Virus genome (UHGV): UHGV-0140551
Direction: 5' to 3' (one strand)
DNA: 19,891 bases
Source: a virus
The notes beneath the pieces are model-generated. The model was not told where the DNA came from and did not search any database. It was given only the letters and a program-made list of their open reading frames with translations. Each line of letters begins with the position of its first letter. Position 1 is the stretch's first letter. Positions 137-12,726 of the stretch are shown in pieces. The position numbers were made by a program, and so were the translations under genes.

Positions 137-1186
137 TTATGCAACCTCTGCCGCCACATTGTCGCCAACATACAGCGATAACGGATTGAGGGTTACAGCT
201 TGTTCAAGGTGGTCAGGAGCAAAGTGCGCATACTTCATTGTTTCTCGAATATTGGCATGTCCGAGAATTTTCTGCAGCACCAGTATATTCCCTCCGTTCA
301 TCATAAAATGCGCACCAAAAGTATGACGCAAAACGTGCGTCTTCTGCCCTTCCGTCAATTCAATATTCGTTAGTTTGAGCATCTTTTTAAACTCCTGATA
401 GCAGGGTTTAAACATTCTGCCTTGACGTACGGACAACTCGTCGTACAGCCATTTAGGAATAGGAACTGTGCGATTCTTCTTACCTTTGGTTTTGGTGAAC
501 GTTAGTTTATATGGAGAAAGTTGAGGTCGGGTCAATCTCTCCGCTTCCCCCCATCGAGCGCCGGTTGCAAGGCACACCTTAACAATCATGGTGAGGTCTT
601 CTTTGCCGTATTGCTCGCAGGCTCGAAACAGCTCCGGGAGCTGAGACAAAGTTAGCCAGGACATTTCTTTCTCAGCTTCTTTGAATACTCGGATCCCATC
701 AAGTGGATTGGGTAGGCTCCACTCCCCTAACCGGCGGAGCTCATTAAACACTGCTTCTAGGTATTGTTGTTCGCGATTGACGGTTATAGGTTTGGCGATC
801 CATTTCGAGGGGTCTTTATGATAACCATTGTCTATTTCACCACGTAATCGACGGTCACGATAATGAGCCCAGTCTTTCGCGGTAAGGCGAGATGCAATCG
901 GGTCGCCAAGTCCATTACATACGATTTGAAGCTTTGCAAATCTCGACTTACTGGCGACTAACGCTTGACCGTGCAAATTGTGCCAAAGCTGAATAATCTC
1001 GCTTAAGCGTCGGCGGTCTTCTTTCTTGCCGAGCCACGGCTTATCTTCACTCTCGCTTTTGGTAAATGCTTCAAATGCCTCGGCCTCACCTTTGGTATTG
1101 AACTGCCGACGTATACGCCGCCCTTCTCGACCATTTGGATAGAGTTCACACAACCATTTTCCACTTTTTTGTTTACTTACAGTCAT
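137..1186 (-). CDS. int: Tyrosine-type site-specific integrase (P2 Int-like)
   Basis: 349-aa ORF with the C-terminal catalytic region HVLRHTFGAHFMMNGGNILVLQKILGHANIRETMKYAH typical of phage tyrosine recombinases. It sits at the prophage edge and overlaps the att core. Confidence 0.93.
   Translation of the reverse strand: MTVSKQKSGKWLCELYPNGREGRRIRRQFNTKGEAEAFEAFTKSESEDKPWLGKKEDRRRLSEIIQLWHNLHGQALVASKSRFAKLQIVCNGLGDPIASRLTAKDWAHYRDRRLRGEIDNGYHKDPSKWIAKPITVNREQQYLEAVFNELRRLGEWSLPNPLDGIRVFKEAEKEMSWLTLSQLPELFRACEQYGKEDLTMIVKVCLATGARWGEAERLTRPQLSPYKLTFTKTKGKKNRTVPIPKWLYDELSVRQGRMFKPCYQEFKKMLKLTNIELTEGQKTHVLRHTFGAHFMMNGGNILVLQKILGHANIRETMKYAHFAPDHLEQAVTLNPLSLYVGDNVAAEVA
142..170. repeat. Left attachment-site repeat (attL core), overlapping the 3' end of int
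   Basis: CAACCTCTGCCGCCACATTGTCGCCAACA matches 19829-19857 at 25 of 29 positions, with the first 15 identical. It encodes the last codons of the integrase (…VGDNVAAEVA). Confidence 0.7.
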
Positions 1187-1210
1187 TGCGATACCGAGGC
1201 TAAAAGAAAA

Positions 1211-1549
1211 TTAATTACAAAGGGCTGTAGCGGCATCAATCACCGGTGAAATTGAAATTTTAACGCCGTCATACTCAGGGTCATCCTTCCATACGTCATC
1301 TAAGTTAGACCCCTCCAGCTTTCCTGATTTAACAGCATCTACCGCCATGCCATTCAGAGGATATCTATCATCAGTTTTGATGTCATACACAAAAGCATAA
1401 GCACGGTTAACACATGATACCTTTGCCTTTTCAAAGGTTAGAGGCCACTTGTCACCATATGCAGCGCCGTCTATCTCTTTAAACTTCTCAGCGGCTATGG
1501 CTGAGGAAGAAAGTGCAATGCAGACTATCGCAAATATAAACTTTTTCAT
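1211..1549 (-). CDS. Small secreted protein with an N-terminal signal peptide; cargo gene between repressor and integrase
   Basis: 112-aa ORF beginning MKKFIFAIVCIALSSSAIAA (a typical Sec signal), with a perfect AAGGAG ribosome-binding site. That site overlaps the stop codon of the upstream repressor gene. Confidence 0.75.
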   Translation of the reverse strand: MKKFIFAIVCIALSSSAIAAEKFKEIDGAAYGDKWPLTFEKAKVSCVNRAYAFVYDIKTDDRYPLNGMAVDAVKSGKLEGSNLDDVWKDDPEYDGVKISISPVIDAATALCN

Positions 1550-1558
1550 TACTGCTCC

Positions 1559-2404
1559 TTAAACATGCTTTTCCAAAGTAAAAATAACCGCACCTGATGG
1601 TGTGATATCTGAAATATTACATTCAAACTCAGCAGACTTATTTGATAACCTGACCTTTCCGCCTGGCAACCTGATTACGTCAAAAACATCGAGTGCGCCA
1701 TCAATACCAATAAGCCAGCGACCATTTCCTATCTTCGAGTTAGAACTATCAACAAGCCAAGATGTGCTCACACCATCAATAAACACTAAATCATCAGTAT
1801 TTGATGGAACCATAGATATATCAGGAGTCCAGCGTCCGATATCTTTGAGTTCGCCAGCCTCGAGGCGGCACTTTCTAATCGTTAAAGCATTTGCCGGTTC
1901 ACCATCATTACTGTTACGCATCTGGCCTTTTCCGGTTGATAACCATTCTAACGATACGCCAGTATCAAGGGCGCAAGTGACAACCACGTCACCGGGGAAA
2001 AAATCGCGTCTAACCCAAGTGCTTATAGTGCCGGAAGATATACCTAATAAATCTCCAAGCTCTTTTTGCAGAGTAAAACCATACGCATCGAGAATCCGAC
2101 GCAGAACCGCCCTCCCTCCATTTGCCATGATTTCATCATAGAGTTGCTTACCTTTAAGCTTAGTTTTCACCACTTCAAATCTTGCATTTGCAAGCTCACC
2201 ATTAATTAGCCATCGCAGGTCAGCTCCAGTATCAAGAGCACACTCAACGAAAACGTTGCTAGGGATTACGTTTCTAGCAAGCCAGCTACTCACGTTGTTT
2301 GCATGTATGCCAAGCCTTTCGGCTAGTTCCTTTTGCTGCTTAAAGCCGTATGCAGAAAGGACACGTTCCAATGCGGCAGACGCATTAACATCATTTTTAG
2401 ACAT
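1559..2404 (-). CDS. CI-type immunity repressor (186 CI-like) with two tandem N-terminal HTH repeats
   Basis: Start trimmed to the ATG at 2402-2404 (MSKNDVNASAALERVLSAYGF…); the longer ORF N-terminus is cysteine-rich junk that would overlap the divergent operon. Two homologous about 60-aa HTH segments (LERVLSAYGFKQQKELAERLGI… and LRRILDAYGFTLQKELGDLLGI…) precede a distinct C-terminal domain. Confidence 0.8.
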   Translation of the reverse strand: MSKNDVNASAALERVLSAYGFKQQKELAERLGIHANNVSSWLARNVIPSNVFVECALDTGADLRWLINGELANARFEVVKTKLKGKQLYDEIMANGGRAVLRRILDAYGFTLQKELGDLLGISSGTISTWVRRDFFPGDVVVTCALDTGVSLEWLSTGKGQMRNSNDGEPANALTIRKCRLEAGELKDIGRWTPDISMVPSNTDDLVFIDGVSTSWLVDSSNSKIGNGRWLIGIDGALDVFDVIRLPGGKVRLSNKSAEFECNISDITPSGAVIFTLEKHV

Positions 2405-2425
2405 ATGACACCAACAAGAATTTTG

Positions 2426-2454
2426 TTTACAACCAAAATTTAGCGATCTATATT
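2426..2454 (+). promoter_or_regulatory. Candidate early lytic promoter (pR-like): -35 TTTACA, 17-bp spacer, -10 TATATT
   Basis: Sigma70-like hexamers with ideal spacing, sitting between the repressor start and the first early gene at 2518. Confidence 0.5.
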
Positions 2455-2517
2455 GGTGCTCACCGACCAAGATGCACACCACTGCACTACATTTCAAACA
2501 ACAGGAGATAATGCGAT

Positions 2518-2889
2518 ATGTCAGATGCAAAATCAATCTCGACGCACGACTCGCAAAACTCACAAAATCAAACTGTGCTGCTAGACCCAACACAGTTTGA
2601 TGCCATCGTTACCGCCATGCTGCCAGCTCTACAGACAATGATTCGCTCCGCTATGTCAGACACGATGACTGTGAAAGACTTCGCCGCTACTCGCGGTGTT
2701 AGCGAGCGTCTGGTCTGGCAATGGCTCGATGAGGGAGTCCTTCTCAAAGCTCCGACCAAAGACTTTTCCAACAAAGAGGAAGCTGCTAAACGAAGCCGAA
2801 CCCTCGTAAATGTAAAAGCATGGCGCGATAAGCTGACTCAACAAGCGATTGATTGTCGCTACATCGACCAGCGCACCGCTCTTAACTGA
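2518..2889 (+). CDS. Cox/Apl-like early regulator or excisionase (HTH protein, first gene of the early operon)
   Basis: 123-aa ORF with an AGGAG ribosome-binding site. It sits in the position of 186 apl / P2 cox and has an HTH-like segment (VKDFAATRGVSERLVWQWLDEGVL). Confidence 0.6.
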   Translation: MSDAKSISTHDSQNSQNQTVLLDPTQFDAIVTAMLPALQTMIRSAMSDTMTVKDFAATRGVSERLVWQWLDEGVLLKAPTKDFSNKEEAAKRSRTLVNVKAWRDKLTQQAIDCRYIDQRTALN

Positions 2890-2921
2890 ATTTGATTATG
2901 CAAGTTAGAGGGAATTTAACC

Positions 2922-3431
2922 ATGTTTGATTTTCAGGTTTCCAAACATCCCCACTATGACGAAGCATGCCGCATTTTCGCACAGCGTCACAACATGGCGA
3001 AGCTGGCCGAGCGTGCAGGTATGAACGTTCAAACGTTACGTAACAAGCTCAACCCGGAACAGCCTCACCAGTTCACGCCGCCTGAATTGTGGCTGCTGAC
3101 TGACCTGACCGAAGACTCAACCCTCATTGATGGTTTTTTAGCGCAGATTCACTGCCTACCATGCGTGCCGGTTAATGAGTTGGCTAAAGACAAATTGCAG
3201 TCTTATGTCATGCGCGCGATGCGTGAACTCGGCGAACTGGCGAGCGGCGCGGTATCTGATGAACGTCTGACCACTGCCCGTAAGCACAACATGATTGAAA
3301 GCGTTAACTCCGGCATTCGCATGTTGTCATTGTCGGCTCTGGCGCTGCATGCACGTCTGCAGACTAATCCAGCTATGTCGAGCGTGGTCGATACCATGAG
3401 CGGTATTGGCGCATCGTTTGGTCTGATTTGA
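2922..3431 (+). CDS. cII: Phage regulatory CII family protein (186 CII-like)
   Basis: Lies immediately after the apl-like gene, as 186 cII does. Start set to the ATG at 2922, which has a GAGGG ribosome-binding site, rather than the TTG at 2892. Confidence 0.6.
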   Translation: MFDFQVSKHPHYDEACRIFAQRHNMAKLAERAGMNVQTLRNKLNPEQPHQFTPPELWLLTDLTEDSTLIDGFLAQIHCLPCVPVNELAKDKLQSYVMRAMRELGELASGAVSDERLTTARKHNMIESVNSGIRMLSLSALALHARLQTNPAMSSVVDTMSGIGASFGLI

Positions 3432-3432
3432 G

Positions 3433-3639
3433 GTGCGTATGCTGAAAAGTGAACCGTCATTCGCATCGCTGCTCGTTAAGCAAAGCCCCGGCATGCACTA
3501 CGGCCACGGCTGGATCGCAGGTAAGGACGGCAAGCGCTGGCACCCGAGCCACTCGCAGGCTGATTTACTGGCTGGCCTCTCTACTCAAAAGCGGGGGGAA
3601 TCATGGCTATCGAAGCTGTTTCCGCGACTGTTCCGCTAA
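3433..3639 (+). CDS. Small early protein, positionally equivalent to 186 fil
   Basis: 68-aa ORF directly after the cII stop in the early operon. No motif recognised. Confidence 0.4.
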   Translation: MRMLKSEPSFASLLVKQSPGMHYGHGWIAGKDGKRWHPSHSQADLLAGLSTQKRGESWLSKLFPRLFR

Positions 3640-4458: not shown

Positions 4459-6681
4459 TTGGCTGTTCAATTCGCTTATCCGTGGAACGTCCCACGGTCG
4501 GCAATCTCCAGCCCATACCTTACTTATGAGCAACAGCATCGCCGCGACCGTATGTTCGCGGCTTTGCTGCATGCAAAAAAGGTGCTTTCTCTCCAGCCCG
4601 ACTGCGTGCGGTTAGATGTTTATCGCACTGCTGCGGTGCTGGAGCAAAATCAGGGTAGTCAACGAGCCAATGCATTTTTAATCAGCTTCTGCAAAAAGGC
4701 ATTGCCGCGTCTTGAACTGGTCGCAAAAAAATACGAATGCGCTGGTATCAACAGCAAGGTATCAACCGCTGTTTTTGGAAGTCATTTTGATACTCAGCAA
4801 ATGCAATATCTGTCGTCACGCATGGTTAATATGGTCGCCCAATATAACCGTCTCCCGGACATGTCGCGCGCTGATGTTGACCTGTTGGCCGCTGATATTG
4901 CTAATTTCATTCGTGGTGAACTTGCCAACATTAATGACCACGGATTCGGCGAGCTTAAAACGCTGTACACCTGGTATATTCGTGCTGGCTTTATTTCCCT
5001 CCAATTCAACGTTATCCCACCACATTGGGAGCGGGTTGAAAAAAAATATGTCGGTGCGGATGAAATCGCACCGGCTATCGCCAAAATGTTTAACGATGGG
5101 TGGTGGCGCGGTCGTTTGCGCCGTGTTGCAGCTACGTGGCGCGAACACCTGCAAATTGCAGTCGGCAACGTCAGTAAGAAAAAAAACACTTACGCGAGTA
5201 AAAACTGCGTGACTGACTGGCGTGAACAAAAGCGCCGCACTCGTGAATTTCTCAAAGGTCTGGATCTCGAAGACGAAGACGGCAACCGTATCAGCCTAAT
5301 TGAAAAATATGATGGCTCAGTTGCTAACCCTGCGATTCGCCGCTGTGAGCTCATGACCCGCATTCGTGGGTTTGAAAACATCTGTAATGAGCTCGGTTAT
5401 GTCGGTGAGTTTTACACTCTAACCGCGCCGTCAAAATATCACGCCACGACTAAAGCCGGTTACCGTAACAGCAAATGGAGCGGTGCCAGCCCGGCTGACA
5501 CGCAAAACTATCTAACCGGTATCTGGGCGCGTATCCGTGCCAAACTACATCGGGAAGATGTCCGTATTTTCGGTATTCGTGTCGCCGAGCCCCATCACGA
5601 CGGCACTCCACACTGGCACATGCTGATGTTCATGCTGCCGGAAGATGTTGAATATGTTCGCTCCATCGTCCGTAAATACGCATGGAAAGAAGACCGCCAC
5701 GAACTGAAAAGCGATAAATCCAAAAAAGCACGTTTCCACGCCGAGTCCATTGACCCGGAGAAAGGCAGCGCAACCGGCTATGTTGCTAAATACATTTCAA
5801 AAAATATCGACGGTTATGCTCTCGATGGTGAAACCGATGATGAAAGCGGTGAGCTGCTGAAAGAGACAGCCCCCGCCGTTTCAGCATGGGCTGCGCGCTG
5901 GCACATCCGTCAGTTTCAGTTTATTGGTGGTGCGCCGGTGACGGTTTACCGTGAGTTGCGTCGCCTCGCTGATACCGAAACCGCGCACGGTCTGAGCGTT
6001 GAGTTTGCCGCCGTCCATGATGCCGCCGACGCTGGTGACTGGGCTGGTTATGTTAATGCTCAGGGTGGGCCGTTTGTCCGTCGCGATGATTTACAGGTGC
6101 GCACACTGTATGAACCGCGCACCGAGCTTAATCAGTACGGTGAGGAAACGGTATGTATTAAGGGGGTCTACGATTCCTCCATAGGTGCAGGAAGCCCGAT
6201 TTTAACCCGGCTCACTCAGTGGAAGATTGTTCCGAAGCGTGCTGTTGATTTGGCCGTTGACCTTCAGGACGGCAAAGCCGTCCCTCGGAGTTCTGTCAAT
6301 AACTGTACGGGAAGCGAAAGCGATCCACCGATACTGGATTTAACAAAACCACTGAGTCGGCGTGAAAGACGAGAATTGACCAACCGACTCAGGAAGCAAA
6401 AGCCAGCAGCACGGCGAAAATTCATCCACGGAACGGATGAGCAAAACGCAGCTATAGCTAAAACTATCGATGAGATACATCTGACAACCGGCATTAATAT
6501 CAGCCGGGGCGAAGCCCTGCACCTGATGGCCGGTGGTAAAAGTTGTTTTGATGGTAAATGGCTACGCGGAACGGCCAAAGGAGAAATATTTTCCGCAGCA
6601 CCATCGCATGAGGCTAAAGCTCGGAAAATCCTTAATCGTGTTGCGGCGATGGCTGAAGCATCAAAACCAATACATGGGTAA
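4459..6681 (+). CDS. Replication initiation endonuclease (P2 gpA-like rolling-circle initiator)
   Basis: 740-aa ORF with an HUH-type metal-binding motif (TPHWHMLMF) and a tyrosine-rich catalytic segment (GYVAKYISKNIDGY). The start is a TTG at 4459 with a GGGGGG ribosome-binding site; the alternative ATG at 4552 is not excluded. Confidence 0.85.
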   Translation: MAVQFAYPWNVPRSAISSPYLTYEQQHRRDRMFAALLHAKKVLSLQPDCVRLDVYRTAAVLEQNQGSQRANAFLISFCKKALPRLELVAKKYECAGINSKVSTAVFGSHFDTQQMQYLSSRMVNMVAQYNRLPDMSRADVDLLAADIANFIRGELANINDHGFGELKTLYTWYIRAGFISLQFNVIPPHWERVEKKYVGADEIAPAIAKMFNDGWWRGRLRRVAATWREHLQIAVGNVSKKKNTYASKNCVTDWREQKRRTREFLKGLDLEDEDGNRISLIEKYDGSVANPAIRRCELMTRIRGFENICNELGYVGEFYTLTAPSKYHATTKAGYRNSKWSGASPADTQNYLTGIWARIRAKLHREDVRIFGIRVAEPHHDGTPHWHMLMFMLPEDVEYVRSIVRKYAWKEDRHELKSDKSKKARFHAESIDPEKGSATGYVAKYISKNIDGYALDGETDDESGELLKETAPAVSAWAARWHIRQFQFIGGAPVTVYRELRRLADTETAHGLSVEFAAVHDAADAGDWAGYVNAQGGPFVRRDDLQVRTLYEPRTELNQYGEETVCIKGVYDSSIGAGSPILTRLTQWKIVPKRAVDLAVDLQDGKAVPRSSVNNCTGSESDPPILDLTKPLSRRERRELTNRLRKQKPAARRKFIHGTDEQNAAIAKTIDEIHLTTGINISRGEALHLMAGGKSCFDGKWLRGTAKGEIFSAAPSHEAKARKILNRVAAMAEASKPIHG

Positions 6682-6755: not shown

Positions 6756-6775
6756 TACTGTATAAATATACAGTA
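6756..6775. promoter_or_regulatory. LexA operator (SOS box) TACTGTATAAATATACAGTA
   Basis: CTGT-N8-ACAG with 19 of 20 matches to the consensus TACTGTATATATATACAGTA. It lies 20 bp upstream of the ORF at 6795 and overlaps an AT-rich -10-like region. Confidence 0.85.
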
Positions 6776-6794: not shown

Positions 6795-6977
6795 ATGGTT
6801 GGCGAACATTTCAGCCGAACGCAGCAAAAGTGGGCTTGTGTGCAATTTATTGCCGAGGTATCTCTGATTGCAAACTGCAAGCCATCAGACTTAAAGCTCG
6901 CGCTCACTCTCATTGCAGACCTAGCAAACAGCGAAAATAACGAAACCGAAGATGATAATTTTTATAAGGCTGATTAG
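6795..6977 (+). CDS. LexA-regulated small protein, candidate Tum-like antirepressor (N-terminal part)
   Basis: 60-aa ORF with a GGGAGGG ribosome-binding site 6 nt upstream, directly downstream of the LexA box and immediately before the DinI-like gene. 186 tum has the same arrangement. Confidence 0.5.
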   Translation: MVGEHFSRTQQKWACVQFIAEVSLIANCKPSDLKLALTLIADLANSENNETEDDNFYKAD

Positions 6978-6980
6978 ATT

Positions 6981-7214
6981 ATGAGAATCAATATCACGTT
7001 GGATAAAGAGCAAAAAATTAGTCAGGCAACATTGGATGCACTTGAGGCTGAACTGTACCGCAATCTTCAACCTATTTACCCAAAGACTGCTATCCGAATT
7101 CGCAAGGGCTCCGCTAATGGCGTTGAACTAAGCGGTTTGAAACTGGACGAAGATAAAAAACGAGTAATGGAAATCATGCAGCAGGTATGGGAGGACGATA
7201 GCTGGCTGCATTAA
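6981..7214 (+). CDS. DinI-family protein (Tum C-terminal / Orf97-like)
   Basis: 77-aa ORF with clear similarity to DinI (MRI…ALE.EL.RR…MEI.Q.VWEDD…W), in a LexA-controlled operon. Confidence 0.8.
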   Translation: MRINITLDKEQKISQATLDALEAELYRNLQPIYPKTAIRIRKGSANGVELSGLKLDEDKKRVMEIMQQVWEDDSWLH

Positions 7215-7220
7215 CAAACG

Positions 7221-7255
7221 CCGCCGGTGCTGAAACTTGCTTTCAGTGCTGGCGG
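7221..7255 (+). terminator. Stable hairpin immediately after the DinI-like stop codon (15-bp stem with G-U pairs, 5-nt loop); no clear U-tract
   Basis: CCGCCGGTGCTGAAA-cttgc-TTTCAGTGCTGGCGG. Could be a weak terminator, an RNA stability element or a processing site. Confidence 0.35.
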
Positions 7256-7347
7256 GGTTGAACAACGAGCTACGCGAGGCGTTAGCCGGTCATAGCGTCG
7301 CAAATACTTCAACCGTCTGCTGGTTAAATAATTCGAGGTTTTTGTAC

Positions 7348-8106: not shown

Positions 8107-9111
8107 CTAATTTACATGTATGTAGAGTTCACCGTCGCCAGACCAATCGGGACACTCTAAAACAAGCCCAAACTGCTTGAATATTTCATCAATGATTATT
8201 GTTATCTCCCGAAAATCACCAAAACCTGTAATGTGCTGGTCATTAAACTTCCCATAAAGATTCTGAAAAGCAATGCCTAATTCTGATAATTGATATCTTA
8301 TCTTTGAGTTGGATAGTGTAAGGGATAGCTTTGGATCGTATTCTTTAATATTGATGTTTAGAGAATGGACATAACCCATCGCATAAGCATAAGAGTTGAT
8401 GATTAGCCTGATACGTTTTTTTACTTCAAGATACATGTCATTCAGAGAAATATTACCGTACTTATAACCCCAGATGAGTTTTTCAATCTCGTCAGATACT
8501 TCATTTACAACAGTGTCAAGATTCTCTAAAAATAAATCGATAGTTTCTTGAGGGGCAGACCCCGAAGACATGTAATTAGCGAGATATTCAGACCATGCAC
8601 GCGTGGCTGAGATAAGAAGCGCGCTACCATACTCGTTGACTGTAAAGTTTTGGGCTAAGCATGTTAGTAAGTTTTTTTCATGTACGTGCACTAATTCATG
8701 GTGAATGCGATGGATGACTGCGAGGTATCCTTCTTCTTTCAGTTTTAAGAAGCTACCATCATTGAAAAGCTCAACAAAAAAATCAATCGATAGCACAAGG
8801 GTATATTCTTCACATAGCCCATCATTGCCAATTTTTGTTACTAACTGCCCGACGGCTGCGCCCTGTTTGCTATTGGTAAATGAACTAGGGGATTTGTGTT
8901 GGTAAGAGGATGTTACCTTTTGAAGAGCTTCACTGAAGTTATAGGAAACAATCACGCATTTTAATTTGGAGATATCAAGATTGAGATTTTTTGTTAAAGC
9001 TCGGATAGCTTCTAGTGTGAAATTACCGATATTATTTGCTTCTTGCTCAGTAGCGAAACCTTCGAGGGTTATTTTAAAATCAGTTTCCAAAATATTAATC
9101 TCCGCGCCCAT
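8107..9111 (-). CDS. AT-rich accessory protein with an HExxH (zinc-metallopeptidase-like) motif; candidate anti-phage or abortive-infection gene in the cos-portal hotspot
   Basis: 334-aa ORF of markedly lower GC than the flanking phage genes. It contains HRIHHELVHVHEKN (HELVH at residues 138-142), has no Walker A motif and no transmembrane segments, and sits where P2-like phages carry variable accessory genes. Confidence 0.7.
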   Translation of the reverse strand: MGAEINILETDFKITLEGFATEQEANNIGNFTLEAIRALTKNLNLDISKLKCVIVSYNFSEALQKVTSSYQHKSPSSFTNSKQGAAVGQLVTKIGNDGLCEEYTLVLSIDFFVELFNDGSFLKLKEEGYLAVIHRIHHELVHVHEKNLLTCLAQNFTVNEYGSALLISATRAWSEYLANYMSSGSAPQETIDLFLENLDTVVNEVSDEIEKLIWGYKYGNISLNDMYLEVKKRIRLIINSYAYAMGYVHSLNINIKEYDPKLSLTLSNSKIRYQLSELGIAFQNLYGKFNDQHITGFGDFREITIIIDEIFKQFGLVLECPDWSGDGELYIHVN

Positions 9112-9188: not shown

Positions 9189-9722
9189 TTATTCTGGGTT
9201 GTCGAGGGTGTACTCTTTGAATCTGATGACCTCCATGCCGAGCCAGTCATTTACCTCCCTGAACCTGTCCTGTAGCGGCGACAGCTCGTTGCGCACAAAT
9301 ACCTTTGCCACCTTCTCAACATCACCGAGTGAACCGATATTCTCGGGCTTGCCGCCCATGAGCTGGAACGGTACGCGGTGCGCGTCCATCAGATCGGCGG
9401 CACTGGCCTTCTTGATGTTGAAAAAGTCATCCTTTGTGGCGACCTCGCTCAGTGGCACGATTTTGATGCCGTCCGGTTTTCCGCCGGGAGCGTAGAAAAA
9501 CAGGTTCTTAAAGTTGCCGAGCCCTTTTGAGTTGCGCATCGCCTCGCGCAGCGATTCGACGTCGGTCGCGCTCTGCGCCGGGTCAGTCACATACATGATG
9601 TAGCCTGCGTGCGCGCCGTTCTGATAATACTTGCGGCGGAACAGCGTCGCGGATTCATTCAGCCAAGCGGAATTGACCGTCCAGTCAGCCGAGATTGTGC
9701 CGTACCAAATTGACGCGACGCT
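9189..9722 (-). pseudogene. Portal protein (P2 gpQ-like), 3' fragment only
   Basis: The frame is open from 9722 down to the stop at 9189, with a portal-like C-terminal translation (…FFYAPGGKPDGIKIVPLSEVATKDDFFNIK…VFVRNELSPLQDRFREVNDWLGMEVIRFKEY…). The N-terminal half is absent; a stop lies at 9723-9725 and a J-like frame begins on the opposite strand. Confidence 0.6.
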
Positions 9723-9969: not shown

Positions 9970-10570
9970 CCGGCTATTACCCGTTGGCTCGTCGCCGCTG
10001 GAGGTTGCCGCCGCCGCTGCGTTCTCTGAGATTCAGCGCGTGCCGGTACCGCTGCGCACCCTGTGGAACTGGCGCACCTGCCCGGTAAAGCTGCTGCCGT
10101 ATCTGGCGTGGGCGCTGTCGGTCGACAGGTGGGATGAGAAATGGCCGGAGGCGACAAAGCGCAACGTCTGCGCGTCCTCGTTTTTCGTCCATCAGCACAA
10201 AGGCACCATCAGCGCATTGCGTCGGGTCGTCGAGCCGCTCGGCTTTCTGATTGAGGTGCGCGAGTGGTGGCAACTCGACGAGGAGCCAGGCACATTCCGC
10301 CTCGTTGTTGGCGTCCTCGACAGCGGCATCACTGACGAAATGTATCAGGAGCTTGAGCGCCTGATTGAAGACGCCAAACCGGCAAGTCGCCACCTGACCG
10401 GGCTGGCTATCAGTCTGAGCTCGACCGGCGAACTGTATGTCGGCGCGGGATGCTATCACGGCGACGCGCTGACTGTTTACCCCTACACCCCCGAGGAGAT
10501 TGTCGTCGGCGGTGAATATTACCCGGCCTCGGCCATCCATTTGATTGATAACCTGAGAGTGAACGCATGA
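9962..10570 (+). CDS. Baseplate/tail protein I (P2 gpI-like)
   Basis: 202-aa ORF with conserved gpI segments (LLPYLAWALSVDRWDEKW, DAKPASRHL) and the typical start overlap with J. Confidence 0.85.
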   Translation: MSDRLLPVGSSPLEVAAAAAFSEIQRVPVPLRTLWNWRTCPVKLLPYLAWALSVDRWDEKWPEATKRNVCASSFFVHQHKGTISALRRVVEPLGFLIEVREWWQLDEEPGTFRLVVGVLDSGITDEMYQELERLIEDAKPASRHLTGLAISLSSTGELYVGAGCYHGDALTVYPYTPEEIVVGGEYYPASAIHLIDNLRVNA

Positions 10571-11523
10571 CCGCAAAATATTTTGCCATTCTGACCAATC
10601 AGGGCGCGGCGCGGCTGGCGAACGCGGCGGCACTCGGTACCAAACTCAACCTGACGCAGATGGCCGTCGGTGATGCGAATGGTACGTTGCCGACCCCTGA
10701 CCCGGCGCAGACGAAGCTCATTAACCAGAAACGCATCGCGCCGCTGAACCTGCTGACCGTTGACCCGGCCAATACCAGTCAGATTATCGCGGAACAGATT
10801 ATTCCCGAGAATGAAGGTGGTTTCTGGATCCGCGAGATTGGTCTCTATGACGATGATGGTATTCTGATTGCCGTGGCGAACTGTCCGGAGACCTACAAGC
10901 CACAACTGCAGGAGGGAAGCGGTCGCACGCAGACCATTCGCATGATTCTGATTGTGTCGAACACATCGGCAATCACCCTGAAAATCGACCCGGCAGTCGT
11001 GCTGGCAACGCGCCAGTATGTCGACGACAAGATTATCGAGGTGAAAGGATATGCTGATAACCTGATGAAAAAACATGTTGAGGCCGCCAATCCACACAAG
11101 CAGTACCCGTTAATCGCTAATGCTCTGAAAGAAATGGTTGACGCGGGACTGGCCGGCGACGTTCTTAAAAACCTTGGTTTGGGAGAGGGAGCAAAATTAG
11201 GCGCAGCGGTGTGTGTGACCGGCTCTACAGGCTATATGACTATCCCGGCAATGGTCGCCGGGAAAGAACGGGTGATCATATTGCAGTGGTTTGGTGCTAC
11301 TACAACTGATTATGTGACACCAGTAACTGCGAATTTCCCTATTGCATTCCCAAATGAGTGCATGATTCCGTTATTTAGTGATGTATCAACTGGGGCAGTT
11401 GATTTGAGTTCTACAGCCGCATATAGCTTAGCGGTGGGCCGATCATACTATACGACGGTAACAAGAACTCAGATTACATGTGCTGGCTACGGTGGCTTTA
11501 GAGTTTTCGCGATTGGATGGTGA
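10567..11523 (+). CDS. Tail fibre protein (P2 gpH-like): constant N-terminal region fused to the currently expressed variable C-terminal segment
   Basis: N-terminus matches the conserved gpH start ([18 protein letters not shown]…[22 protein letters not shown]…[18 protein letters not shown]…). A recombination site lies inside the gene at 11162-11187. Confidence 0.85.
11162..11187. repeat. Invertase crossover site (hix/gix-like), left copy, inside the tail fibre gene
   Basis: TTCTTAAAAACCTTGGTTTGGGAGAG resembles hix/gix sites and is an imperfect inverted repeat of 12711-12736. Confidence 0.6.
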
Positions 11524-11948
11524 TTAATATGTTTTATTCTGCAAAAGAAAATGCGTTCTACGCTGATGAGCTAAAAAGTATTTATGAAAATGCAGGTAGC
11601 TGGCCTGACGATGCCGTTGAAGTAGACTATTCCGTATTCGTTGAGTTTGCCGGAGAATCACCTAACGGAAAATTACGCGCTCCTAATTCTGATGGTTTAC
11701 CTGAATGGATAGATATTCCCGAACCAACTGAAGAGGAAATTATTGCGTTGGCAGAAGCCGAAAAATCGCGACTGCGTGCTTCAGCTGACTCTGAAATAGA
11801 ATGGCGGCAGGACGCCGTTGATGCGGGGATCGCGACGGAAGAAGAAACTGTTTCATTAGCCGAATGGAAAAAATACCGGGTGCTGCTGATGCGAGTTGAT
11901 ACAGCAGACCCGGACTGGCCTACTCCTCCGGCGACTCAGGCCAGTTGA
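11517..11948 (+). CDS. Tail fibre assembly chaperone (gpG/U-like), paired with the current fibre tip
   Basis: 143-aa ORF with the typical motif [10 protein letters not shown]…WPDDAVEV…; an alternative start is the ATG at 11529. Its 3' end overlaps the convergent paralogue. Confidence 0.85.
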
Positions 11949-12351
11949 TATCTGGTGCGCTGGATATGTCCACAGATTCCAGCGCATCGAGATAATCCAG
12001 CCACTCGTTATACTGGGCCTTCTCGTCGTCTGTAAGTCGCCCCAGCGCAGCTTTACCCGGCCACTGCTTGCTGTTTATATACTCATTAGCCTGATCGATA
12101 CGATACTGTTTTTCAGCTTCAGCTGCTGCGATTTCCTCCTCATGGCTTAAAGGTGGAATGTCTACCCATGCCGGCATTCCATCCTCAGTAGCTCCACGAG
12201 TTTTACCCTCTGGTGGCATCCCCGAATATTCAGTGAATGTCTCATCTGAGACGGCTATGAGATCGTCAGGCCAGTTTCTACTCGCTTCATAAACATCTCT
12301 GAGCTCATCAGGGTAGAAAGCGTTATTTAATGCTGAATAAAAATAAGCCAT
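11920..12351 (-). CDS. Alternative tail fibre assembly chaperone (U'-like) in inverted orientation
   Basis: 143-aa paralogue ([22 protein letters not shown]…WPDDLIAV…) on the opposite strand, convergent with and overlapping the 11517-11948 gene by 29 nt. Confidence 0.8.
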
Positions 12352-12354
12352 TTA

Positions 12355-12726
12355 TTAATACCCCACAGCAAAATAGTTAAACCCGCCAGCGCCGATGGAT
12401 GATTCAGCGTTGGTTCCTGTCTGATAAGCGCGTAGCTGGAAATTAGTTCTCGTAAAATCCTGGGCGGTTAACGCAAAACCTTGACCTGTACCCCCAACAC
12501 TCTGGTCTGTTGCAACAACACATAGCGCCCTGGTTGGAAACGCAATCGGGAATGATACTGTTTCTGGGGATGTTCTCGTTATGGCTATTGCCCATTGAAG
12601 AATTAACCCGCCTGGCAGGTATTGATACCCCGAATCGGCTCGCTGATTACCAAATGAAGACATGTCCGGAATCTGTCCGGAACCAGTGCCAACATTTTTT
12701 TTTGCCGCATCTCCTAAACCAACCTT
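12355..12726 (-). CDS. Alternative tail fibre C-terminal segment (Sv'-like), lacking its own start; expressed only after inversion
   Basis: The frame is open from the recombination site at about 12726 to the stop at 12355. Its …KVGLGDAAKKNVGTGSGQIP… mirrors …[13 protein letters not shown]… at the left site, and its stop is followed by the chaperone start. Confidence 0.65.
   Translation of the reverse strand, partial: KVGLGDAAKKNVGTGSGQIPDMSSFGNQRADSGYQYLPGGLILQWAIAITRTSPETVSFPIAFPTRALCVVATDQSVGGTGQGFALTAQDFTRTNFQLRAYQTGTNAESSIGAGGFNYFAVGY

Follow-up and report, generated by a model that had tools for sequence, protein, structure and literature searches.

The immunity repressor examined here carries two DNA-binding heads in one chain, and the two heads are constrained very differently. 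It is encoded by the cI gene of a 19,891-nucleotide stretch of DNA from UHGV virus genome UHGV-0140551 (the whole stretch is referred to below as the window), an Escherichia coli prophage of the P2/186 family that is PSP3-like (Eganvirus). Among repressors of this architecture the second helix-turn-helix domain (HTH2) is nearly invariant, whereas the first (HTH1) differs from one immunity class to the next together with the DNA around the predicted lytic promoter, pR. These comparisons lead us to favor, with slightly more confidence than doubt, a hybrid-operator model in which HTH2 would read a conserved operator arm and HTH1 would read class-specific arms, such that the two together would occlude pR while HTH1 and its DNA would set immunity.

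The initial annotation had proposed, from the sequence alone, that the N-terminal part of the repressor (CI) consists of two paralogous HTH copies, each resembling the single N-terminal domain of the CI repressor of coliphage 186, and that a separate C-terminal domain follows them. Each of these proposals held up. Residues 7-70 and 93-156 align without gaps at 31 of 64 identical positions (48%, E 8e-24), and Pfam recognizes PF07022 (Phage_CI_repr) in two stretches (E 1.5e-47) and PF16452 (Phage_CI_C) once, at residues 176-269 (E 4.6e-19). A domain hidden Markov model built in this analysis sets the limits of the copies at 8-70 and 96-158. HTH1 and HTH2 are 41% (E 1.6e-15) and 38% (E 6e-15) identical to the 186 CI N-terminal domain, respectively. 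AlphaFold2 modeled HTH1 as a five-helix bundle (helices 8-19, 24-31, 35-44, 49-59 and 63-68) and HTH2 as another (97-108, 113-120, 124-132, 138-148 and 152-157), so the second repeat, like the first, is predicted to adopt an HTH fold. The predicted local distance difference test score (pLDDT) is ~80-90 in both bundles, which are followed by a beta-rich domain, and the linkers at 72-81 and 161-170 are modeled as disordered, with pLDDT below 50 at 72-81 (73-80 in a second model). The linker region includes invariant residues (K84, G85, L88, Y89, G96 and G97). For a model of the N-terminal fragment the best structural match was the N-terminal domain of 186 CI (2fjr), followed by P22 c2 and 434 Cro. 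Foldseek placed the C-terminal domain on that of 186 CI (2fkd_A) with a template modeling (TM) score of 0.88 and a root-mean-square deviation of 1.7 Å over 107 columns; LexA C-terminal domains were distant fold matches only (E 1e-5 to 1e-3, TM ~0.55), below the 186 match. The fold similarity to 186 CI is compatible with a 186-type heptamer-of-dimers wheel that would wrap operator DNA. Pfam returned no Peptidase_S24 match in CI down to E 0.1, the match by which the self-cleaving LexA/lambda CI class, with its Ser/Lys dyad and Ala-Gly cleavage site, would be recognized. By its domains, fold, context and induction module, CI belongs to the 186-type family; it differs in carrying two heads per subunit, at 281 residues, where a 186-type subunit has one DNA-binding domain in about 190. 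RefSeq labels the product 'phage repressor protein CI', and NCBIfam holds no family model for this CI. A short isoform initiated internally at M93 was set aside, as M93 is not conserved.

Comparison with single-headed relatives indicates which head came first. The 186 protein (2fjr) aligns to CI residues 100-274, and a scan of 1.84 billion representatives aligned single-HTH CIs of ~190 residues (~100 cluster representatives) to residues 95-280. CIs of 192-196 residues from Rahnella, Ewingella, Chimaeribacter, Franconibacter and Citrobacter prophages have a sole HTH that is ~90% identical to HTH2 and shares its helix 3, SSGTISTWVRR, with 50% identity over residues 96-281. These relatives start with MQLDELEGGK, which matches helix 86-95 just ahead of HTH2. 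A nearest-neighbor analysis covering 175 HTH domains placed HTH2 copies with these single-HTH CIs and HTH1 copies with one another. Therefore, HTH1 and the linker were added to the N terminus of an already complete repressor, once for the PSP3 type; judged by alignment, HTH2 plus the C-terminal domain corresponds to the whole of a single-HTH CI, and HTH1 is the added head. The same analysis gave a different picture for the Klebsiella phage 4LV2017 type and for P0180/P0193/P0194, where each HTH has its own sibling as nearest relative, a sign of at least two more independent duplications, or of conversion. Multi-HTH repressors of the Phage_CI_repr family were also seen more widely (L003, which is 4LV2017, and P0138, P0158, P0205, P0180, P0193 and P0194), and P0247 has three HTHs; in these proteins, too, the copies are most closely related to one another, which points to separate duplications. 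In 4LV2017 the two helix-3 sequences are near-identical and the upstream DNA contains one type of half-site, TGTGA, in three direct copies.

The two heads also differ in how strongly they are held. Over 56 distinct double-HTH CIs, mean pairwise identity is 0.81 in HTH2, as compared to 0.57 in HTH1, 0.47 in the C-terminal domain, 0.44 in the inter-domain linker and 0.27 in the second linker. Where residues are identical, synonymous codon differences make up a fraction of 0.60-0.62 in HTH1, HTH2 and the C-terminal domain alike. Because synonymous divergence in HTH2 is as saturated as in the other domains, its conservation is due to selection at the protein level, and causes acting on the DNA itself, for instance recent recombination or an embedded FL-like site, are excluded. 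The exposed helix 3 of HTH2 (T126 to R133) is among the invariant residues, which is the reverse of the usual pattern for the reading heads of heteroimmune repressors. HTH1, whose helices 2-3 sort into discrete classes, shows the usual pattern.

Part of the DNA between cI and apl varies in step with HTH1. A consensus scan predicted pR with 10 of 12 consensus matches, and its frame is repeated in 29 HTH1 classes and in the annotated pR of 186. In all loci compared, a first block, which begins at the cI start and ends midway through the pR spacer, varies with the HTH1 class, and the block from the -10 to the apl start occurs in three versions that track the type of apl/cox gene, not HTH2. A site for HTH2 in the conserved right half (2455-2517) was considered and dropped, since the three versions found there follow the apl/cox gene though HTH2 is constant. 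When the 29 classes were aligned on pR, information content was 1.68 bits per position in the -35 hexamer, 0.22 at spacer positions 1-7, 0.89 at spacer positions 12-17 (consensus GCGATC) and 1.21 in the -10 hexamer, with positions 8-11 A/T-rich across classes. The left arm is correlated with helices 2-3 of HTH1 (Mantel r 0.67; partial r 0.61 after control for the C-terminal domain; p 2e-4), not with HTH2 (partial r 0.06) and scarcely with the C-terminal domain (partial r 0.09). The GCGATC arm, in turn, is present across HTH1 classes and apl types. It is not a general promoter feature, because 186 has GGGAGA and phages with an HTH2-only CI have CAAGTT at the same position.

Within the window the left side of this arrangement takes the form of an inverted repeat, AATTTTG/CAAAATT, that occurs only once at zero mismatches. 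It is kept within its HTH1 class (SW9, L009 and L032, with a variant in L008), whose three other loci come from Salmonella phage SW9, Yokenella and Buttiauxella, and is absent from other classes. The symmetry of these candidate HTH1 arms suggests involvement of both subunits of a dimer. The right side is the GCGATC arm, which makes up, with the left arm CCAAAA, a putative unit (2433-2448) that is hybrid rather than symmetric and occupies the place of the central pR operator of 186, where TCTCTCAATTGGGAGA lies at spacer positions 2-17. Related phages carry comparable units, sometimes doubled. For example, Midge has two exactly 21 bp apart with the same arms, ACTCA-N4-CGATT (CACTCAAAATCGATT and AACTCATTTTCGATT), as does locus L047 with GAGCAC-N4-GTGATY (GAGCACGAAAGTGATT and GAGCACATTTGTGATC), and neither pattern has a further copy within about 6 kb. 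Left arms are more alike within a locus than between loci (2.83 versus 1.92 of 6 positions, p 1e-4), and in the related loci scanned, such units were found at pR only. HTH2-only phages have one symmetric unit in the pR spacer, ACTTGCA-AA-TGCAAGT (ACTTGCAAATGCAAGT), which matches the symmetric unit of the Kosakonia class, AATCGCATTTGCGATT, at 11 of 16 positions. This match connects the conserved arm with an HTH2-type head, and GCGATC may be related, by a partial match, to the half-site TGCAAGT of HTH2-only relatives. A GATC (2445-2448 in the window) lies just upstream of the -10 in about two thirds of immunity classes, and Dam methylation there could affect repressor binding or pR activity.

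The palindrome and GCGATC appear to be better operator candidates than the two imperfect repeats flanking pR that the initial annotation had put forward as half-sites. Both repeats exist, at coordinates slightly different from those given (CACCAACAAG at 2409-2418 and CACCGACCAAG at 2461-2471), as a short imperfect pair that needs one indel and was not reported by a repeat finder, and comparison with relatives argues against an operator role for either. CACCAACAAG contains CACC (2409-2412), which is the reverse complement of the probable cI Shine-Dalgarno GGTG and recurs in most HTH1 classes. CACCGACCAAG reads CATCGACCAAG in most relatives, is common to three HTH1 classes and changes with the type of apl/cox-like gene. 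The surrounding region, 2461-2488, hardly changes among phages that belong to three HTH1 classes and gives way to other sequences when the apl type is different; other apl/cox types carry other repeats, either ATGCAC-N4-ATGCAC or CACACCACATGTAACACC. In 186, the direct repeats bound by Apl are spaced by one helical turn and lie between pR and pL (PMC7498355). The TGCAC repeats at 2461-2488 have this arrangement and are probably sites of the Apl/Cox-like protein and/or parts of pL.

The induction module provides a further reason why part of CI might be held constant. A perfect LexA box, CTGTATAAATATACAG, is the sole zero-mismatch match in the window and precedes a gene pair annotated as tumA and tumB in PSP3, a split version of the Tum antirepressor of 186; the upstream gene of the PSP3 pair is reported to be the antirepressor (PMC3121763). 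The gene layout is that of SOS induction by a LexA-repressed Tum, as for 186-type CIs, and not by self-cleavage; NCBIfam has no family model for tumA. Across three HTH1 classes, represented by PSP3, SEN1, SW9, SI22, Midge and RCIP0057, the nucleotide identity of tumAB is 96-98%. Because tumAB is near-identical across HTH1 classes, the antirepressor must recognize a conserved part of CI. The most evident candidate for the target of TumA is HTH2, whose frozen surface would thereby also be explained.

Under the hybrid-operator model, HTH2 would keep its ancestral task of reading the conserved half-site (T/A)GCGATC (2443-2448) immediately ahead of the pR -10. HTH1, tethered by ~17 flexible residues, would read the class-specific A/T-rich half-sites CAAAATT (2434-2440) and, inverted, AATTTTG (2419-2425). 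The two heads would then cover pR from -35 to -10 and shut off the lytic operon, with HTH2, the C-terminal domain and TumA as a constant core. HTH2 would be held constant probably because one LexA-controlled TumA must inactivate CI in all immunity classes. The assignment of heads to arms, and of TumA to its target, we infer from these comparisons. The initial annotation had suggested that a tandem repressor would recognize composite operators and thereby change immunity specificity. The comparative data fit a two-head reading of this kind, although the heads are not equivalent, HTH2 being near-invariant and HTH1 added and variable; the effect on specificity can probably be assigned to one head, HTH1, because HTH1 and its arms co-vary while HTH2 and its arm stay fixed.

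Several observations weigh against this model. Operator binding by a double-HTH CI is itself deduced from sequence comparison, and AlphaFold2 shows no defined arrangement of HTH1 relative to HTH2 (predicted TM score 0.42 for the full-length protein, 0.58 for residues 1-165). The HTH1 coding sequence lies less than 150 bp from the variable DNA, so inheritance of both in one recombination block could explain the correlation even if no contact is made. GCGATC could belong to the promoter or serve Dam methylation instead of being an operator arm, and its resemblance to the arm of HTH2-only relatives is partial: relatives with an identical helix 3 have TGCAAGT, TTTGAGG or AATAAGG there, to be compared with TGCGATC. 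Layouts also differ by class: the Kosakonia class has a symmetric GATCGC-N4-GCGATC, the Pectobacterium/Brenneria class has large palindromes whose outer arms are GCGAT, and the spacing of the arms varies in L008. The corresponding place 21 bp upstream of the candidate unit of the window (2412-2427) keeps only a left-arm-like CAACAA (2412-2417), which overlaps the ribosome-binding-site region. Finally, scans of the window with the hybrid unit, the symmetric GCGAT unit and the HTH1 palindrome revealed no distal FL/FR-like sites above chance, although weak or divergent sites may have escaped them.

Some of these layouts might also be explained if each head paired with its twin in the partner subunit, with an HTH1 pair on AATTTTG/CAAAATT and an HTH2 pair on operators of the GATCGC-N4-GCGATC type, and no composite site within a chain. 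A four-headed dimer would then lie over two adjacent operators, in place of the several dimers used by 186 CI. The clean, HTH1-class-specific palindrome at 2419-2440 would be accounted for, as would the symmetric units of several classes (Kosakonia, L030, L046, L041 and L037) and the observation that HTH2-only phages have one symmetric pR unit where double-HTH phages often have two, 21 bp apart, as fits two heads per unit and four per dimer. However, the GCGATC arm lacks a symmetric partner where one would be expected in the window, PSP3, Midge and the Pectobacterium/Brenneria classes, and Midge repeats the same asymmetric pair of arms (ACTCA...CGATT) in both units, which a symmetric dimer leaves unexplained. 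We therefore regard twin pairing as unlikely.

A second alternative, to which we give marginally less credence still, is that only HTH1 binds the operator, HTH2 being a conserved scaffold or docking surface (for TumA, for neighbors in the wheel or for non-specific wrapping) and GCGATC a promoter or Dam feature. Invariance is indeed unusual for the reading head of an immunity repressor, the conservation of tumAB across immunity classes demands a conserved target in CI, and the GATC is present in most but not all classes; moreover, the 186 CI wheel wraps poorly defined flanking DNA (PMC3675496). Yet a domain of the HTH2 type is the sole HTH of the 196-residue relatives, where operator binding falls to it, and the surface residues of HTH2 helix 3 are themselves invariant. 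The conserved arm is also separated from the variable arm by the correct 10 bp and sits where 186 has its operator, and GCGATC at -13 to -18 is not needed by sigma-70 and is lacking from 186 and HTH2-only phages. That the duplication is neutral or decaying, with a relaxed, roleless HTH1 and the DNA near pR drifting along with it, is highly improbable: HTH1 is less conserved than HTH2 but better conserved than the C-terminal domain, its fold is intact, its core and HTH residues R14, Y19, Q24, K25, S39, W41, R44, C55, T59, G60, W65 and L66 are invariant across more than 50 species, the class-specific palindromes and repeats are kept within classes across genera, and tandem HTHs arose, conversion aside, at least three times in the family.

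If the hybrid-operator model is taken one step further, double-HTH CIs may be natural single-chain heterodimer repressors, in which a frozen, TumA-compatible HTH2 would anchor the protein on an invariant half-site and HTH1 with ~30 bp of adjacent DNA would form an exchangeable immunity cassette. New immunities would then be made by adding or swapping a second head, not by mutating the first, and the design would have arisen independently at least three times in the Phage_CI_repr family (PSP3, 4LV2017 and P0180/P0193/P0194 types). We offer this generalization tentatively, and with clearly less confidence than the hybrid operator itself.

Table 1. Coordinates of the repressor domains, candidate regulatory sites and neighboring genes in the window
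Feature	Position	Strand	Remarks
int	137-1186	minus	
DUF2511 gene	1211-1549	minus	between int and cI
cI immunity repressor gene	1559-2404	minus	PSP3-type double-HTH CI; ATG at 2402-2404; 281 aa + stop
C-terminal oligomerization domain, residues 176-281	1562-1879	minus	186 CI type
HTH2, residues 96-158	1931-2119	minus	nearly invariant; helix 3 SSGTISTWVRR
Inter-domain linker, residues 71-95	2120-2194	minus	disordered 72-81, conserved LKGK motif, helix 86-95
HTH1, residues 8-70	2195-2383	minus	variable, class-defining; helix 3 about HANNVSSWLAR
Probable cI Shine-Dalgarno GGTG	2409-2412	minus	4 nt upstream of ATG; presumed assignment
Palindrome AATTTTG/CAAAATT	2419-2425 and 2434-2440		inverted repeat spanning -35; candidate HTH1 half-sites
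Predicted lytic promoter pR	2426-2454	plus	-35 TTTACA 2426-2431, 17-nt spacer, -10 TATATT 2449-2454
Candidate hybrid operator unit CCAAAA-TTTA-GCGATC	2433-2448		in pR spacer; unique in window
GCGATC arm	2443-2448		abuts -10; candidate HTH2 half-site; holds GATC Dam site
pR-to-apl region	2461-2488		two direct copies of TGCAC (2473-2477, 2483-2487) with 10-bp spacing
Apl/Cox analogue	2518-2889	plus	first lytic-operon gene; 123 aa
cII (PF06892)	2892-3431	plus	followed by fil and further genes up to A
Replication gene A	4459-6681	plus	
LexA box (perfect)	6758-6773	plus	21 nt upstream of tumA
tumA	6795-6977	plus	antirepressor; 60 aa
tumB	6981-7214	plus	DinI homologue; 77 aa; DinI equivalog match

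The genes around this switch are arranged as in 186, with a leftward cI-int operon facing a rightward operon that runs from apl/cox through cII to A (Table 1). The product of the first lytic gene belongs to phrog_3554 and weakly matches the Cox-like excisionase phrog_575; its counterpart in phage Midge is annotated as Cox-like, and that in PsP3 was called a singleton by Nilsson et al. 2011 (PMC3448106). The 5′ part of this gene contains a 14-nt inverted repeat, 93% complementary, at 2567-2601 (ATCAAACTGTGCTG / CAACACAGTTTGAT), to which direct copies of CAAAATCAA(T/A)CT at 2528 and 2563 are related. The lysogenic operon includes a DUF2511 (YebY-like) gene with a signal peptide that is kept in PSP3 (gp28), SW9 and Midge and looks like a cargo gene expressed in lysogeny. 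Another probable cargo gene is a 334-residue open reading frame (ORF) on the minus strand at 8107-9111 (phrog_11743), between the tum region and a portal-gene remnant. Positions 1100-3500 match the E. coli MB06232 chromosome at 100% identity, and related sequence is present in 124 of 5426 complete E. coli genomes; in E. coli strain 1008S13 the prophage adjoins yfiB. Compared with the intact prophage of 1008S13, ~9.9 kb (L087 27980-37914) is absent from the window, with the junction at 9674. The missing DNA extends from within the portal gene to within the baseplate J gene and takes with it the terminase, capsid and lysis genes and part of the baseplate genes. Because of this deletion the window copy is defective, its immunity region nonetheless being intact. 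A second small deletion or rearrangement of ~340 bp, again by comparison with 1008S13, lies directly 3′ of tumB (window ~7217-7285; L087 25186-25523). In the tail-fiber region (10567-12663), a 318-residue N-terminal fiber ORF and an assembly gene on the plus strand are accompanied on the minus strand by an assembly-like ORF (11920-12351) and a C-terminal fiber fragment (12355-12663), a layout reminiscent of invertible host-range segments.

The double-HTH architecture is not peculiar to this element, because it is widespread (PSP3, SW9, SEN1, Midge and many prophages). More than 50 species of Enterobacterales have it: database clusters with it number in the hundreds (Klebsiella, Enterobacter, Salmonella, Kosakonia and others), and so do about 50 of 80 loci taken from one-genome-per-species contigs show it. 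Nor is the window CI new as an object, because the PSP3 group to which it belongs has already been sequenced: over its full length it is 91.5% identical to the CIs of Salmonella phages SW9 and SI22, ~73% to those of PSP3, SEN1 and 613R3, and 67% to those of Midge and RCIP0057. Of PsP3 CI, Nilsson et al. 2011 (PMC3448106) reported 'a longer C-terminal domain' than in 186 CI and nothing more, and the HTH duplication corrects this view of a protein merely longer at its C terminus. In the searchable literature, which leaves subscription-only papers aside, we found no account of HTH duplication in PsP3 or other Phage_CI_repr repressors, and the unequal constraint on its heads, like the hybrid-operator reading, seems to be undescribed so far. 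The 186 switch belongs to the small number of phage switches that are understood quantitatively, and its repressor is a wheel of single-headed subunits. Two heads per subunit alter the stoichiometry of heads to operators and suggest another way to encode immunity. If correct, the hybrid-operator model accounts for many heteroimmune PSP3-like phages having tumAB and a repressor core in common while being immune only to themselves, and a fixed anchor head with exchangeable specificity heads and matching half-sites would supply parts for orthogonal repressors. The practical weight is moderate: double-HTH CIs are common in Klebsiella, Enterobacter, Salmonella and E. coli prophages, and the new biochemical principle is only proposed.

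Coliphage 186 CI (PDB 2fjr and 2fkd; Eganvirus) is a first point of comparison. It resembles the window CI in combining PF07022 with PF16452 and in its C-terminal fold, and the two systems share leftward int-cI and rightward apl-cII genes, a place for the operator in the pR spacer, occupied in the window by the candidate unit, and a LexA-controlled Tum antirepressor. In 186, inverted-repeat units of 16-17 bp at pR are spaced two helical turns apart (PMC3675496); those of several PSP3-type relatives are 21 bp apart. However, 186 CI has one HTH per chain of 192 residues where the window CI has two in 281, and 186 has three symmetric pR operators plus distal FL and FR, ~300 bp to each side of pR, whereas distal sites were not detected in our pattern scans of the window. 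Also unlike in 186, one candidate operator arm of the double-HTH group is conserved across immunity classes while the other is class-specific, the Apl analogue of the window is unrelated in sequence, and Tum is split into two proteins. Within the PSP3 group (SW9, SI22, SEN1, Midge, RCIP0057 and vB_EcoM-613R3), the same double-HTH CI (67-92% identity), switch layout and tumAB recur with other HTH1 classes and other DNA around pR. The single-HTH CIs of the HTH2 type (192-196 residues; loci L055-L079) lack HTH1 and the linker; their operator in the pR spacer resembles the conserved arm, but it is one symmetric palindrome rather than hybrid or doubled units. More distantly, engineered single-chain 434/P22 repressors and the natural AraC/MarA, POU and paired domains read adjacent major grooves with two linked HTHs, and linked heterologous heads give hybrid operators; those systems are artificial or unrelated and lack a 186-type oligomerization domain. 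A last parallel is the repressor of cluster A mycobacteriophages, which is monomeric and contacts an asymmetric operator through two DNA-contacting modules (PMC9283540). It is an analogy only: the two families are unrelated, the second module of that repressor is something other than a duplicated HTH, and the repressor acts at many 'stoperator' sites.

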